DNA of 64,000 nucleotides. Origin: Escherichia coli (GTDB taxonomy: Bacteria > Pseudomonadota > Gammaproteobacteria > Enterobacterales > Enterobacteriaceae). The DNA lies in assembly GCF_003334815.1 (NCBI RefSeq), contig NZ_QOWO01000016.1; one strand, written 5' to 3'. A program made the translations under genes and the position numbers. The notes under the pieces were generated by a model that was not told the origin of the DNA, ran no database searches, and saw only the letters and a program-made list of their open reading frames with translations. Position 1 is the first letter of the stretch. Every line of letters begins with the position of its first letter. Of the stretch, positions 16,372-22,129 are shown piece by piece.

Positions 16372-16815
16372 ATGAATAAAGTTAAAAGTGTTTACAGCCC
16401 GTCCGAAAATGCAATCTACAACGCAGCGCTATATGAAAGTTATATCAAGGAGGGGACATGGCCGCAGGATGGTATTGAAATCAGCGATGAGGATGCTGTC
16501 AGATTTAATGGGGGAAATAAGCCAACAGGAAAAATGCTGGGAATGGTTTCAGGGACCCTTGCATGGGTTGATGAGCCGCCGCTTTCACCAGAACAGAAAA
16601 TATCAGATGCAGAAAACATGAAAGCCACATTTCGTGCAAAAGCTGACAGTGAAATATCCTGGCGTCAGGATGCTGTTGATGCTGGTATCGCAACTGATGA
16701 AGAAACTTCAACTCTCACCCAATGGAAGAAATACCGTGTGCTGCTGATGCGTGTTGATACTTCAACAGCACCCGATATTGAATGGCCTACGCCTCCGGCA
16801 GTCCAGGCCAGATGA
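16372..16815 (+). CDS. tail fibre assembly protein (for the currently expressed fibre variant)
   Basis: 147-aa ORF 4 nt after the fibre stop. The C-terminus ...WKKYRVLLMRVDTSTAPDIEWPTPP is the conserved Tfa chaperone tail. Confidence 0.8.
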   Translation: MNKVKSVYSPSENAIYNAALYESYIKEGTWPQDGIEISDEDAVRFNGGNKPTGKMLGMVSGTLAWVDEPPLSPEQKISDAENMKATFRAKADSEISWRQDAVDAGIATDEETSTLTQWKKYRVLLMRVDTSTAPDIEWPTPPAVQAR

Positions 16816-17389
16816 CGTCCGGCGCTGTGCTGGTATCTGTTGCCGTCACCGCGTCAATGTAATCCAGCACGGCGTTAAGTCGGGTTGTTTCTGCCGGCGT
16901 CAACTTCCGTCCGGCCTGTAATTTCAACTGAATCAGACTGATGGAAGCCATTGCAGCATCAATCAGATACTGGCGCTGTGCTTCTGCCGCTTCTACTGCG
17001 GCGCTATGCTGTGCCTCAGTATCCGTCACCCATTTCTCACCATCCCATTTATCGTATGGCGTTAATGGGGCGATAGTGGTTGTATTATCAGGGTAATCAC
17101 CCGGAGCTGTGATTTCTTTGGCGTCTCCCGTTTCGGTGCTATAGACAATTTCACCACGATGGTCTGACACATATTCCCATGATTTTAAATCCATAGAACG
17201 GCAGATAGCATAACCCGCCTTATATGTGCCAGGTTCATCCAGACAGGAATATGCAGGGATACCGACACCAATGGCAAGATATTCATTTGAAGTAGAAATA
17301 TATTCCCGAGTTTTACCATCATAGTTATAGACGGTAATATTCCCCGCCTTCGTGGCAATAAGCTCGCTATTTAATACGGCGTTATCCAT
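16787..17389 (-). CDS. tfaE: tail fibre assembly protein TfaE-like (silent orientation)
   Basis: 200 aa, near-identical as I recall to K-12 e14 TfaE (MDNAVLNSELIA.KAGNITVYNYDG.TREYISTSNEYLA...). Convergent with the other tfa gene, overlapping it by 29 nt. Confidence 0.88.
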   Translation of the reverse strand: MDNAVLNSELIATKAGNITVYNYDGKTREYISTSNEYLAIGVGIPAYSCLDEPGTYKAGYAICRSMDLKSWEYVSDHRGEIVYSTETGDAKEITAPGDYPDNTTTIAPLTPYDKWDGEKWVTDTEAQHSAAVEAAEAQRQYLIDAAMASISLIQLKLQAGRKLTPAETTRLNAVLDYIDAVTATDTSTAPDVIWPGLPEA

Positions 17390-17882
17390 TATGCAGCCCT
17401 CACGATATAGTTAAATGCAATATTTCGTGGACGGGTTTCACTCCCGCCAGTATTACCGATACTCCCTCGTGAATGAAGTGTCGGTGATGGGATCAGACTC
17501 CCTCCTGTATTTGTGGCATCAAGTCCCCGTCCTTGTGTGTATGTCTTTTTGAAAATCGTAGCCAGTTCCCATTCATCTTTTGTGTCGTAACCATCATTGG
17601 CAACAACAATATGGCGGTGTTTTTCCAGCATCCCTGTCTGAATGCTCAATAAAACACGTCCTGCATCAATACCGCGCCCGTCATCCCAGCCACGAATAAA
17701 CTCACCACGTAAATCAGGCAATTTATTTGTCGGATAAGCCTTTGCCAGTTCCGGGTATTCTTCAGCAGAAAAAGCCGCACCGTTGCATTTCAGCCAGCCT
17801 GTTGGCGGTGTGGCTGAAGGCCATGGAACAGGCACACCAACAGGTAATGCAGAGCCTTCTCCCAAACCAACGTTTATGAAAA
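17389..17882 (-). CDS. stfE: promoterless alternative tail-fibre C-terminal cassette (StfE-like, collar-type receptor-binding domain)
   Basis: The open frame enters from the right crossover site (...GLGE|GSALPVGVPVPWPSATPPTGWLKCNGAAFSAEEYPELAKAY...PDLRGEFIRGWDDGRGID...ETRPRNIAFNYIVRAA). The MMPFARYF... start in the track lies outside the segment and is not a real N-terminus. Confidence 0.78.
17857..17882. promoter_or_regulatory. right crossover site for the Pin-family invertase
   Basis: TTCTCCCAAACC-AA-CGTTTATGAAAA: two imperfect 12-bp half-sites around a central AA, matching the architecture of Din-family sites. Confidence 0.7.
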
Positions 17883-17936
17883 TGCAGAAATAACGAGCAA
17901 ATGGCATCATTCCTGCTTTTGTCAGGGAGATCTACT

Positions 17937-18491
17937 ATGCTTATTGGCTATGTACGTGTGTCAACAAATGACCAGAACACAGATCTACAACGTAATGCGC
18001 TGAACTGTGCAGGATGCGAGCTGATTTTTGAAGACAAGATAAGCGGTACAAAGTCCGAAAGGCCGGGACTGAAAAAACTGCTCAGGACATTATCGGCAGG
18101 TGACACTCTGGTTGTCTGGAAGCTGGATCGGCTGGGGCGTAGTATGCGGCATCTGGTCATTCTGGTTGAGGAGTTGCGCGAACGTGGCGTTAATTTTCGC
18201 AGCCTGACGGATGCTATTGATACCAGCACACCGATGGGGCGTTTTTTCTTTCATGTGATGGGTGCCCTGGCTGAAATGGAACGAGAACTGATTGTTGAAC
18301 GAACAAAAGCTGGACTGGAAGCTGCTCGCGCACAGGGACGAATTGGGGGACGTCGTCCCAAACTTACACCAGAACAATGGGCGCAGGCCGGGCGATTAAT
18401 TGCATCAGGCGTTCCTCGCCAGAAGGTGGCGATCATCTATGATGTTGGTGTATCGACACTGTATAAGAAGTTTCCGGTCGGAGATAAATGA
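17937..18491 (+). CDS. pin: serine DNA invertase (Pin/Gin/Cin/Hin family)
   Basis: MLIGYVRVSTNDQNTDLQRNAL... contains the catalytic Ser motif, with a C-terminal HTH. Near-identical to e14 PinE as I recall. I prefer ATG 17937 (GGGAGA SD) over the 17901 start in the track. Confidence 0.93.
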   Translation: MLIGYVRVSTNDQNTDLQRNALNCAGCELIFEDKISGTKSERPGLKKLLRTLSAGDTLVVWKLDRLGRSMRHLVILVEELRERGVNFRSLTDAIDTSTPMGRFFFHVMGALAEMERELIVERTKAGLEAARAQGRIGGRRPKLTPEQWAQAGRLIASGVPRQKVAIIYDVGVSTLYKKFPVGDK

Positions 18492-18785: not shown

Positions 18786-18814
18786 TTGAAAAAAAACGAA
18801 AATAGATTAACAAT
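18786..18814 (+). promoter_or_regulatory. candidate sigma70 promoter of the AT-rich cassette
   Basis: TTGAAA (18786-18791), 17-nt spacer, AACAAT (18809-18814), ~35 nt upstream of ATG 18850. In AT-rich DNA such matches arise easily. Confidence 0.3.
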
Positions 18815-18849
18815 GTTCAGAAGAAACCTTCATAATAGAAGAGGTATAA

Positions 18850-19104
18850 ATGGGTAAGATTATTCGGTGGATGCTTTTTTTTGTCGGATTATTTTCCGTT
18901 GCATATTCAATATATAAATATCAACAATCTCCGCAGAGTTTATTTTACATAATCGGTGCTATAGGAACACTTTTATCTGCTACATGTGGTTTACTTGAGA
19001 TAAAAAGCAAGAAATCGAATGGCAGTATAACTGCTGGCGACAACTCAAATATCGTTGTCATTAATGGTTCAGAAAACACATCAAAAATAAAAAATAGAGG
19101 GTGA
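18850..19104 (+). CDS. small two-TM membrane protein with polar GDNSN-motif tail (unknown function)
   Basis: 84-aa ORF with GAAGAGG SD 6 nt upstream. Hydrophobic helices at about residues 6-22 and 31-50. Very AT-rich codon usage. Its stop overlaps the next gene's start region. Confidence 0.65.
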   Translation: MGKIIRWMLFFVGLFSVAYSIYKYQQSPQSLFYIIGAIGTLLSATCGLLEIKSKKSNGSITAGDNSNIVVINGSENTSKIKNRG

Positions 19105-19106
19105 TT

Positions 19107-20042
19107 ATGTTTGATAAAGAGGTTAACTTAGGAGACAACTCAAACGTAGTAAAAACAGAAGGGAATAACAACACAACAATAATAAATAATTTTGATGAGA
19201 AGTTTATAGGTCACGTTGTAAGATCCATGCTTTATGAAAGTATGCCTTCCTTTCAAGAAGAAGCTAGAAAAAAGATAATTGCGTCAACTGATGAATACAT
19301 TAGAGAGCTAATATCTGAGTTAGTAATTCAAAAAACAGATGCAGATACATTAAACCAAAAACTATCAACGCCTGACGTTCAATACTCTCTTTTTGAATCA
19401 GCTAAATGTTTTGCAAAAAATCCAGAAAGAACAGCAAAATCAACTCTGTTAAATTTAGTTGTAAAAAAAATAAATGAATTGGATGGAGATCATGAAGAGC
19501 TTTCCTCTATCGATCTGGCAATAAACGTCGCTACAAAACTTAGCGTAAAGCAAATAAGGTATATATCTTTAATATACTATATTAAAGATATTGTAAAAAT
19601 ATCACAAGATAGTGCCGGCGCTTATTGCATAATAGATCCTTCAAAAGATACAACAGAAGAAGTTGACGATTTCTTTTTATTCCCAAATGATATAAAAAGG
19701 AACAAGCAGGATGTTTATGATCTTTATATCGATCTATATAACAATCAAATGGATGTTGTATTTAAAGATGAAGAGATTGGCCCAGTTGATTATAGTATGC
19801 TTATAGCATTGGGTTGTATCATTCAACCTGCATTCCCTCAGCGAACATTTGTACAAAATGTAAAGAAAAGAACAGGATTAGATTTAAACGACAGCGAACA
19901 AAAATTAAAGCTATCGACATTCATTGAGAAAATAGAAAAAGCTATAGAGATAGATTCTGTCGATTATATAGTATTAACTACGGTTGGTAGACAAATAGCT
20001 AACGCCTATATATCAACAAGAATGAGATTAGTTAACTTATAA
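19107..20042 (+). CDS. hypothetical soluble protein (~311 aa) with N-terminal GDNSN-motif; possible LPO_1073/Vpar_1526-like family (unverified recollection)
   Basis: Long ORF (track 19101..20042, GTG). I prefer ATG 19107 with AGAGGG SD 6 nt upstream. No TM segment. Followed by a strong terminator. Confidence 0.75.
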   Translation: MFDKEVNLGDNSNVVKTEGNNNTTIINNFDEKFIGHVVRSMLYESMPSFQEEARKKIIASTDEYIRELISELVIQKTDADTLNQKLSTPDVQYSLFESAKCFAKNPERTAKSTLLNLVVKKINELDGDHEELSSIDLAINVATKLSVKQIRYISLIYYIKDIVKISQDSAGAYCIIDPSKDTTEEVDDFFLFPNDIKRNKQDVYDLYIDLYNNQMDVVFKDEEIGPVDYSMLIALGCIIQPAFPQRTFVQNVKKRTGLDLNDSEQKLKLSTFIEKIEKAIEIDSVDYIVLTTVGRQIANAYISTRMRLVNL

Positions 20043-20063: not shown

Positions 20064-20100
20064 AAGGTGGTGGCTTCATCATCCACCGCCTTCTTTTCTG
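20064..20100 (+). terminator. rho-independent terminator of the AT-rich cassette
   Basis: AAGGTGGTGG-cttcatcat-CCACCGCCTT (10-bp stem with one G-U pair) followed by CTTTTCTG, 22 nt after the stop codon. Confidence 0.6.
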
Positions 20101-20445: not shown

Positions 20446-20805
20446 ATGTTAACGCCGTTTGGTAAGACAGTAAGAAAAATGCGCATAGACTTGGGGCTTA
20501 CGCTTAAAAGCATGGCTGAGGCTATGGGCATGACCTCGTCTTATCTTTCAGCGATCGAAACTGGTAAAAGGGCGGTCACTAAGCCCGTGCTTGATAGCAT
20601 CATTAGCTATTTTAATGCGGATGAAAAACAAAAAGAAAAGCTTATCAGTGCAGCTCGTGACTCTCAGCAGTCAGTAGAGATCAGCTTGTCAGGTAAGAAT
20701 GGCCACGCTCGTGAAGTCGCAATTGCGTTCGCTCGTAGTTTTGATGAATTAAATGAAGAAGACTTCCGTAATTTACGACAGATTTTGAATCGAAAACAGC
20801 AGTAG
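20446..20805 (+). CDS. XRE-family helix-turn-helix transcriptional regulator
   Basis: 119 aa. The N-terminus FGKTVRKMRIDLGLTLKSMAEAMGMTSSYLSAIETGKRAVT is a classic Cro/C1 HTH. GGAGAAG SD upstream. Confidence 0.85.
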   Translation: MLTPFGKTVRKMRIDLGLTLKSMAEAMGMTSSYLSAIETGKRAVTKPVLDSIISYFNADEKQKEKLISAARDSQQSVEISLSGKNGHAREVAIAFARSFDELNEEDFRNLRQILNRKQQ

Positions 20806-20813
20806 GAGGCGGC

Positions 20814-21335
20814 TTGAGCGGACAAGATTATCGTGTACCTCCGCAGAATCGTGAATCAATACGTTCTATCGTCACATCTCTGCGGAGCGCATTTGGTATT
20901 ACTGGGCTTAAATTCCCTGTAATGGAGGTAATTGAGTTCGCATTGCCTCAGTTGATCCCGGATTTTGAGTTCCACATTGGTGGCATGAAAGAAATGGGAG
21001 AAACGCATGGTCTTACGTACCCACAGGAACATTTATTGATTCTGCGCGAAGACATTTACGAAGGCGCTTTGAATGGGGTAGGGCGAGATAGGATGACTGC
21101 CGCGCATGAATTGGGTCATCTTCTTATGCACAGGAACATCGCATTTGCTCGTTCTGCCCCAGGGGTAAAAATCCGCCCTTTTGAGAGTAGTGAATGGCAA
21201 GCTAAATGTTTTAGTGGTGAGTTATTAGTGCCGGCTATGCATGTCAGTATTTTAAAAGGTATGACGGCTGAGGATGTTGCTAAGGCATGCGGAGTTTCAT
21301 TAGTGGCAGCGCGTTATCAGCTAGACAGAATGTAA
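20814..21335 (+). CDS. ImmA/IrrE-family zinc metallopeptidase (COG2856-type, HEXXH)
   Basis: 173 aa. Contains ...MTAAHELGHLLMH... (HEXXH) plus a downstream E (FSGELLVP). TTG start at 20814 with AGGAGG at 20804-20809, which overlaps the XRE stop and implies coupling. Confidence 0.82.
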   Translation: MSGQDYRVPPQNRESIRSIVTSLRSAFGITGLKFPVMEVIEFALPQLIPDFEFHIGGMKEMGETHGLTYPQEHLLILREDIYEGALNGVGRDRMTAAHELGHLLMHRNIAFARSAPGVKIRPFESSEWQAKCFSGELLVPAMHVSILKGMTAEDVAKACGVSLVAARYQLDRM

Positions 21336-21880: not shown

Positions 21881-22129
21881 TTAGTGAACAAACCACTCGT
21901 CAGCAGACTCCCAGGTATCTTTCAGAGTTTCCTGAACAAAAGTTTTAGCTGAATCTTTATCGGCGGTGCGCGTAACAGAAAGGCCATCGTTGCTGGTGGC
22001 TTTTACGATCACCTCTACATCGTCATAACGCTTACTGATGCGTCGAGTTAATTCTTCCTTTAACGCATCCACAGCACCGTTTGGCATTTTAGTCATTTTC
22101 TCTTTAGCTATGCAGATCTCAATACGCAT
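21881..22129 (-). CDS. DinI-family DNA-damage-inducible protein (prophage-encoded)
   Basis: 82 aa, [11 protein letters not shown]...[16 protein letters not shown]. Same length class and C-terminal motif as E. coli DinI. Two LexA boxes lie immediately upstream. Confidence 0.88.

Follow-up and report, generated by a model that had tools for sequence, protein, structure and literature searches.

A twenty-residue motif shared by a small membrane protein and a Vpar_1526-family protein in Escherichia coli points to a probable mobile anti-phage module

The DNA considered here is a window of 64,000 nucleotides (nt), that is, the whole stretch that was analysed, from an Escherichia coli chromosome (contig NZ_QOWO01000016.1), and it includes the right end of a Mu-like prophage, beside prfC. 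Directly downstream of the pin invertase in this window lies a cassette of two genes, gene 1 encoding a small membrane protein and gene 2 a larger protein of the LPO_1073/Vpar_1526 family (Table 1). The products of the two genes carry the same short motif at their facing ends, the gene 1 product having the tail ...SITAGDNSNIVVINGSENTSKIKNRG and the gene 2 product starting with MFDKEVNLGDNSNVVKTEGNNNTTIINNFDEKF.... The two motif copies are identical at 11/21 residues, their starts lie 95 nt apart, and both contain an 11-nt core, GACAACTCAAA. A first-pass annotation of this DNA had already noticed the match, and its coordinates, residue strings, offset and identical core are all correct, its strings carrying one extra leading residue (A, L) beyond the coordinates. 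The BLOSUM62 local alignment between the two proteins scores 60, compared with a mean of 27 and a standard deviation of 5 after shuffling, and 0/20000 shuffles reach 60; the shuffling was confined to the two N/G/S-rich tails and preserved their composition. The motif pair is real and significant. At the DNA level, the two copies agree at 39/63 bases, which is not above the prediction from codon usage, and the same codon is used at 7/11 identical residues, where 4.9 are expected from the genes' own codon usage. Because same-codon use is near expectation, the 11-nt core is a by-product of conserved residues in AT-rich codons, and there is no sign of a recent DNA repeat.

Table 1. Features of the two-gene cassette and of its surroundings (window coordinates; aa, amino acids)
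Feature	Position	Strand	Remarks
Invertible tail-fibre segment	16372-18491		Alternative tail-fibre C-termini and assembly genes on opposite strands (16372-16815 +, 16787-17910 -)
Pin/Gin-type serine invertase	17901-18491		Resolvase match, E=1e-51
Promoter-like site, TTAACA-18-CATAAT	18807..18836	+	Upstream of gene 1; 10/12 consensus matches; weak evidence
Shine-Dalgarno sequence of gene 1, AGAGG	18840-18844		Sequence reading
Gene 1	18850..19104	+	84-aa small membrane protein; two hydrophobic helices, cytoplasmic Lys-rich linker, C-terminal motif
Motif copy 1, GDNSNIVVINGSENTSKIKN	19036..19095	+	Gene 1 residues 63-82 (G63-N82)
Gene junction	19096..19109	+	AGAGGG (gene 2 Shine-Dalgarno sequence), TGA stop 19102-19104, 2-nt spacer, ATG 19107
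Gene 2	19107..20042	+	311-aa LPO_1073/Vpar_1526 family; disordered N-terminal motif, then mainly helical globular domain; putative sensor
Motif copy 2, GDNSNVVKTEGNNNTTIINN	19131..19190	+	Gene 2 residues 9-28 (G9-N28)
Terminator-like hairpin	20064..20099	+	10-bp GC-rich stem, then CUUUUCU; closes the cassette; -15.8 kcal/mol, z=-4.1 vs shuffles
Helix-turn-helix (HTH) gene	20446-20805	+	Downstream of the cassette
M78/IrrE-type metallopeptidase gene	20814-21335	+	Downstream of the cassette
DinI-like gene	21881-22129	-	phrog_189, E=4e-30; between prophage cargo region and prfC

The motif pair recurs well beyond the window. Close homologues (82-99% identity) in Citrobacter, Atlantibacter, Providencia, Cronobacter and Kluyvera retain both genes, and the gene 1 homologues are 84 aa long and 88-99% identical. 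Three divergent gene 2 homologues with genomic context (34-43% identity; loci L003, L004 and L007) each have an upstream two-helix gene of 82-95 aa, and the products of these genes end in ...STGDNSSVVNISGNKNKASIKK, ...QAGNNAKIVHVQGNHNKTNIK and ...TSGENSTNIIVNGNKNKTKVKRGG; a Metabacillus prophage homologue, at 27% identity, has the same upstream small membrane gene with the motif tail. In gene 2 homologues down to 34% identity, the motif residues G9, T17, G19 and N22 are invariant and D10, N13, V15, T24 and I26 are nearly so, and few segments of gene 2 are as well conserved as the motif in homologues at 34-90% identity. Moreover, a profile search of 1.84 billion representative proteins gave 673 family members at E<=1e-3, and most of the top 150 matches begin with a related motif. 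The first-pass annotation had stated that GDN-type repeats occur in conflict-system proteins; the literature searched gave no confirmation of this, but a related N-terminal motif is nonetheless general to the Vpar_1526 family.

Gene order was followed in 76 loci from metagenomes and viral contigs, the latter supplying eight loci, plus the Metabacillus prophage, and the 53 non-redundant loci with upstream room that were used represent Proteobacteria, Firmicutes, metagenomes and viral contigs. In this set, essentially every Vpar_1526-family gene is preceded, on the same strand, by a gene of 60-115 aa, with a spacing of -65 to +17 nt in 52/53 loci, the two genes mostly lying within about 20 nt of each other or overlapping. 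Hydropathy gives one or two membrane segments in 52/53 upstream proteins and none in 50/53 Vpar proteins. Across the 53 loci, the C-terminal tail of the upstream protein matches the N-terminus of its own partner, and two unrelated membrane modules bear the same type of tail, one with two transmembrane segments (2-TM) and one with a single segment (1-TM, 'N.EWVFSGIG'). The shared aligned core consists of 22 columns, Q.Q.vG..S.(G/A)(I/V/Y)Q(A)G(R/G)D(V/I)N(I), and the family-wide motif, Q.Q.vG..S.(G/A)IQAG(R/G)DVNI, has a high content of Q, G, N, V and I and frequently a G-phi-Q-phi-G core of the type found in the RIP homotypic interaction motif (RHIM). The gene 1 motif of the window aligns in register with this family-wide motif, the window clade being a divergent variant. 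In addition, there is a clade from human gut metagenomes (L063-L073, L078) in which the upstream membrane protein of 61-77 aa ends in ...VNQTFNVSGNHNTVVGIKNDKREK and its partner begins with MCDNVNTTQNAQFGSHDNKFVSQENNYYG; these ends are only loosely alike (score 22-24), as in a strongly diverged pair or after loss of matching.

The two ends also change together. Cognate tail/head pairs have a mean score of 52.5, compared with 34.9 for non-cognate pairs, and identical core cells number 505 in cognate and 345 in permuted pairings, a value of 505 being reached in 0/5000 permutations. With one locus for each of 18 clades, defined by <50% identity in the globular part, which limits pseudo-replication through relatedness, cognate pairs share 9.0/22 positions and non-cognate pairs 5.0, and 0/7419 derangements reach the cognate value. 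Where the core Q has changed, the change is seen on both sides (to S in L074, to N in L076), and the same holds for G to D in L064 and for 'AYQ' in the L026 clade; in the window clade both partners have lost the core Q, a hydrophobic or other residue taking its place. At synonymous sites, the same codon is used at 229 of 519 identical residues, where 225.5 are expected (z=0.33), and this codon test rules out recent duplication or gene conversion as the source of the match. Because there is no excess synonymous identity, the match is maintained by selection on the peptides. Co-variation to the same residue at the same position suggests in-register parallel stacking, which would predict it, and would not be obvious for antiparallel strand addition. 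The first-pass annotation had put forward that the motif pairs the two proteins with each other, for example by beta-strand addition, and of its proposals this one comes closest to the evidence of family-wide pairing and co-variation towards identity: as a putative interaction, in-register beta stacking fits the co-variation better than simple antiparallel strand addition does.

The Shine-Dalgarno sequence of gene 2 sits within the 3' end of gene 1, the two genes are in different reading frames, and this layout suggests that translation of genes 1 and 2 may be coupled. The A-rich run at the end of gene 1 (window 19081-19097) holds a slippery-looking heptamer, A_AAA_AAT (19089-19095), and gene 2 lies in the -1 frame, so that a programmed frameshift fusing the two genes was considered; it was rejected, because slippage there runs into a TAG of the -1 frame at 19095-19097, shortly before the gene 2 start codon. 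Sites like the putative promoter before gene 1 are no more frequent in this region than in shuffled sequence.

The gene 2 product matches the NCBIfam model NF045477 (LPO_1073/Vpar_1526) with 85.9 bits against a cutoff of 45 (E=3.3e-24) and therefore belongs to this family; it also matches phrog_19542, and its homologues all carry the precomputed Pfam PF28206. The LPO_1073/Vpar_1526 family has no function assigned so far. It is the only domain match of the gene 2 product, in which no NTPase, TPR, WD or PIN domain was found, and the gene 1 product has no match in Pfam, NCBIfam, PADLOC or PHROG. PADLOC-DB 2.0.0 gives no defence-model match for either product, its matches being limited to the nearby HTH and M78 genes (capH/capP-like models). 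The AlphaFold2 (AF2) model of gene 2 has a mean predicted local distance difference test (pLDDT) score of 83; residues 31-306 are confidently modelled and mainly helical with a small sheet, while residues 1-25 have a pLDDT of 28-36. In the AF2 model of a fused homologue, two helices, 5-33 and 38-62, are predicted in the gene 1-like part. The AF2 monomers show both motifs without structure (pLDDT 28-36), and no docking on the confidently modelled globular domain is seen (57-62 sequences). For solved relatives of the gene 2 fold, Foldseek against the PDB gave nothing below E=0.8, and a PDB sequence search gave nothing; the BFVD search for this fold gave nothing, and megablast and tblastn against GenBank phages gave no match.

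The two parts of the cassette also occur in single chains. P0011/L002 joins, in one frame, a 2-TM module to motif 1 and then, through a linker, to motif 2 and the domain; in P0141 and P0158 the chain comprises a membrane helix with two copies of the motif, and in P0043 and L012 a membrane helix with one copy. An assembly artefact was considered for the L002 fusion and rejected: the fusion is in frame, its 53% identity indicates a different lineage, and independent fusions exist. It comes from a single 1.6-kb contig and is supportive only. The first-pass annotation had advised a survey of homologues for fused versions, and such fusions are found (P0011/L002, L012, P0141, P0158). Their existence agrees with its suggestion that the motif pair is a tandem-repeat remnant of a single ancestor, but the part of this suggestion that makes the pair a relic fails, because the motif is among the most conserved gene 2 segments and the match is kept at the protein level without excess synonymous identity. 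In P0094, P0133 and P0156, an HNH-like domain replaces the membrane module and one motif copy is kept between the nuclease and the Vpar_1526 domain, while other members, without the motif, have at the N-terminus a DUF4062 (P0152, E=1.5e-8), a Mrr-like domain (P0105, weak) or an HNH_3 domain (P0168, weak). This modularity suggests that the Vpar_1526 domain serves in sensing or regulation and that the effectors joined to it are interchangeable.

The cassette has a guanine + cytosine (GC) content of 30-32%, compared with 47-52% in its flanks. The prophage genes in the window include baseplate and tail-fibre genes, an invertible tail-fibre segment and the Pin/Gin-type invertase; small serine recombinases have been reported to mark defence loci (PMC13552941). 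Of 5426 complete E. coli genomes, 4 contain the cassette, and in each it lies downstream of the pin invertase. The same cassette (84 aa + 311 aa, 90% identity) is found in a P4-like satellite of Atlantibacter and Citrobacter (L087-L094, e.g. L087 3286-8858), where Psu, Ogr/Delta and a Pox_D5 (alpha-type) primase fragment lie upstream of it and RhuM, HicB and SymE downstream; a UvrD-like helicase with a 263-aa gene also lies nearby. Because the same cassette occurs in the P4-like satellite and in the Mu-like prophage, it moves between cargo sites of different mobile elements. In Vibrio, the homologue lies between an integrase/NERD gene and insertion sequence elements with a group II intron. Furthermore, an E. 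coli group (P0005, 55 member sequences; L097 2613-3033, corresponding to about window 18840-19260) has a gene 2 allele with a 1-nt G insertion after window 19225, which parts the N-terminal motif from the globular domain, the gene being annotated from Met41; the module may be inactivated in this lineage. Sporadic presence, mobile context and a frameshifted allele are typical of accessory conflict modules, and the cassette may be one.

As for the genes on the far side of the cassette, the best PADLOC matches of the HTH and M78 genes are capH- and capP-like regulators. This pair is missing from the other four complete E. coli genomes with the cassette, in which a DinI-like gene directly follows, and it is therefore regarded as a separate insertion.

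The arrangement can be compared with bacterial amyloid signalling sequences (BASS) and their fungal counterparts (FASS). In BASS pairs, a membrane-targeting effector carries a motif of about 25 residues at its C-terminus, and the receptor encoded next to it carries the motif at its N-terminus (Dyrka 2020, bioRxiv 10.1101/2020.01.06.895854). The two genes run collinearly, 57% of the pairs being separated by <=10 bp and 42% overlapping; Q, N, G, V and I are over-represented in the motifs and K, P and L under-represented, and 'all-in-one' architectures with the effector fused directly to the receptor are known (bioRxiv 10.1101/2020.01.06.895854). The pairs described here likewise have a shared short motif at the facing ends of neighbours, both in the window and in the 53 loci with their 22-column core, and collinear close genes (a 2-nt spacer in the window; -65 to +17 nt in 52/53 loci). 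The core composition in the 53 loci is Q 12.2%, G 12.1%, S 10%, N 9.9%, V 8.7%, I 8.1%, P 0.1% and L 1.5%. A Bell/HeLo or enzymatic death effector was not found; the gene 1 product is a hairpin of one or two TM segments without a family, and by analogy it is the functional (membrane-directed) equivalent of a Bell effector and, by the tests run, not a Bell domain. The likeness to the Bell/NLR (NOD-like receptor) pairs BASS1-10 and to the fungal HET-S/NWD2-type pairs lies in the motif of 20-25 aa, its placement at the same ends, the collinear close genes, most of the composition (much Q, N, G, V and I, little P and L) and the fused versions. Unlike the receptors of BASS1-10, the gene 2 product has no NB-ARC/NACHT or repeats, and the effector here is not Bell. 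In addition, BASS1-10 have been reported mainly in multicellular Actinobacteria and Cyanobacteria, whereas members of the Vpar_1526 family come from Enterobacteria, Vibrio, Firmicutes, phages and satellites.

A comparison within the species is offered by Bab/Agp (BASS11) of E. coli ECOR25, in which experiments have shown that a 20-residue motif relays the phage-infection signal to a small membrane-directed protein and leads to abortive infection (Ibarlosa 2024, bioRxiv 10.1101/2024.11.07.622273). Bab/Agp is also a two-gene module of a prophage hotspot in E. coli, with a small membrane-targeting protein (109 aa there) that has a C-terminal motif of about 20 residues and an adjacent larger protein with an N-terminal copy; Asn, Asp and Gly matter in its motif, and its partners evolve congruently. 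Its effector, however, is a soluble Bell-like helical domain, whereas that of the present cassette is a hairpin of one or two TM segments, and the published BASS11 positions (I87-G88-S89-V90, Q92, D99-N100) do not line up with GDNSN..V..G as compared at these few positions. Neither a Bab effector nor a TGP receptor is present in the cassette, which is set apart from BASS11 by its architecture, the motif comparison covering part of the BASS11 motif.

A second likeness is to RHIM, BASS3 and the fungal PP motif. RHIM cores are IQIG, VQVG and GIQIG, RIPK1 having GIQIG and RIPK3 VQVG (PMC12575786), and most clades of the present family have G-(I/V/L)-Q-(A/V/I)-G at the centre of the motif, and (R/G)-D/N comes next. 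Of the 53 tails, 28 contain the tetrad [IVL]Q[IVA]G, as do 21 of the 53 heads, and it occurs 0 times in 12285 globular residues. In contrast to RHIM, the window clade has this core replaced (IVVIN in gene 1, VVKTEG in gene 2), and the window motifs, which lack the Q core, do not belong to RHIM/BASS3. The resemblance to RHIM is one of a short pattern, for which homology is not shown. The module would thus work like a BASS pair and is not placed in any described BASS family. The literature searched (LPO_1073/Vpar_1526, PF28206, amyloid signalling with prophage or RHIM-like) contained no description of the motif, of the obligatory membrane partner or of a function.

The motif is conserved across the family under selection at the protein level, the partners co-vary, and the tightly coupled genes travel together in cargo sites of prophages and satellites. 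This pairing pattern probably points to a new mobile anti-phage module. By analogy with the systems compared above, genes 1 and 2 may be a two-component module of mobile cargo that works in the manner of amyloid signalling (BASS type), with a sensor other than an NLR recruiting or activating a minimal effector in the membrane, and we hold this explanation with moderate confidence, its chances of being right and wrong being about equal. Gene 1 would give a tiny inner-membrane protein whose cytoplasmic C-terminal tail is the motif of about 20 residues, and gene 2 a cytosolic Vpar_1526-family protein, the presumed sensor, with the same motif in its first 28 or so residues. Upon a trigger, most plausibly phage infection, the sensor would self-associate, and the motifs, which are disordered in the monomers, would stack as in-register parallel beta structure in a cooperative fold resembling those of amyloid signalling or RHIM. 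The N-terminal motifs of the sensor would serve as a cross-beta template and recruit the matching cytoplasmic tails of the membrane protein, and the clustered membrane hairpins would damage the membrane, so that the cell would abort infection. The effector-swapped architectures (HNH-like, Mrr-like, DUF4062) fit a sensor domain coupled to different effectors. Direct motif-motif binding, its cross-beta or amyloid nature, the roles of sensor and effector and the anti-phage function are what we infer here.

Several points weigh against this explanation. The window clade is without Q and without the G-phi-Q-phi-G core. In the 53 loci, Q, G, N, V, I, P and L fit the BASS composition, but K makes up 6.4% of the core and so shows no depletion. 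With the Pfam RHIM model (PF12721), no match at E<=10 was obtained for the window protein and six relatives. The gene 2 product is neither an NLR (NB-ARC/NACHT plus repeats) nor a TGP receptor; unlike NLRs, the sensor has no NTPase or recognizable oligomerization domain, and no solved relative of its fold was found, so that its role as a sensor rests on analogy. There is no PADLOC model for either protein. The membrane partner is probably inserted in the membrane constitutively, whereas Bell and HeLo domains insert only on activation. A permanent structural joint accounts for the fusions in which both motif copies are retained (P0011, P0141, P0158) no less well than a switch does, the disorder in the AF2 models is also usual for any short linker, and co-variation towards identity is also expected if both motifs compete for a single site. 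Finally, interaction, fibrils, toxicity and phage resistance are attributed to this family by analogy.

The strongest alternative is constitutive anchoring, which we regard as possible but rather unlikely. The two motifs would then form a stable, non-switching hetero-oligomeric beta joint that tethers the Vpar_1526 protein to the membrane, and the pair would be a split membrane-anchored protein with its activity in the globular domain. This would agree with the existence of single-chain forms (P0011/L002, L012, P0043, P0141, P0158), with the hydrophobic helices that the membrane partner already has, and with the presence of Vpar_1526 in membrane fractions of growing Veillonella parvula, where it was detected in the whole-cell, outer-membrane and surface-exposed fractions (PMC5491611, Table 1). 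These fraction data fit membrane association and perhaps detergent-insoluble assemblies. However, a plain tether needs no in-register Q/N/G-rich motif on both chains, and fusion, though possible, is rare, 52/53 surveyed loci being split. AF2 shows no ordered structure for the two adjacent motifs of the natural fusion, and both the 1-TM 'EWVFSGIG' module and the 2-TM module carry the same tail, a sign that this tail is a portable coupling device.

Much less probable is competition for a pocket, in which the N-terminal motif of gene 2 would bind a groove of its own globular domain in cis and autoinhibit the protein, the gene 1 tail competing in trans. It would also give co-variation towards identity and selection at the protein level; AF2 (57-62 sequences), however, docks neither motif on the domain (motif pLDDT 28-36), the composition and the G-phi-Q-phi-G core are typical of self-stacking motifs rather than of linear docking peptides, and the HNH-fused members keep one motif copy without a partner tail. 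The shared recognition tag, which the first-pass annotation had offered as one of three possibilities, is more improbable still: a third factor (a host protease, a chaperone or a phage protein) would read both motifs without any contact between them, as the terminal, exposed and predicted disordered position of both would allow, but the motif pairs change together lineage by lineage across phyla, no conserved third gene accompanies the cassette, and a host-encoded reader would favour a fixed motif. That the motifs are a neutral relic of an internal duplication or gene split with no present function is hardly credible, since, in spite of the fused two-copy forms and the 11-nt stretch, the motif is among the most conserved gene 2 segments, the pair persists across phyla, and the lack of excess synonymous identity (z=0.33) indicates copies that are old but kept matched.

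The motif pair is statistically solid and opens onto a widespread, co-evolving two-gene architecture, of which the window copy is a divergent member without a Q-centred core. In a broader and more tentative view, to which we give less than an even chance, the Vpar_1526/LPO_1073 family and its small membrane partners may make up a large, unrecognized class of RHIM-like amyloid signalling in unicellular bacteria, prophages and satellites, in which a sensor other than an NTPase templates a peptide of one or two TM segments into a membrane-damaging assembly. If this is true, it would be a second and far more widespread amyloid-signalling architecture in bacteria, beside the single validated case of Bab/Agp, and cross-beta templating would be a common modular coupling device in phage defence, nuclease-fused variants included, and not only a property of NLR/TGP systems or of multicellular bacteria. 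It would also give a working role to a family without a function that comprises hundreds of diverged clusters (673 representatives at E<=1e-3). Even under stable anchoring, joining a membrane peptide to a soluble protein through obligatory matched motifs would be a new way to assemble split proteins. The cassette of 84 + 311 aa is a very small and tractable E. coli system for learning how a 20-residue motif signals to the membrane, and the co-varying natural motif variants of the family are a ready specificity set for swap experiments.

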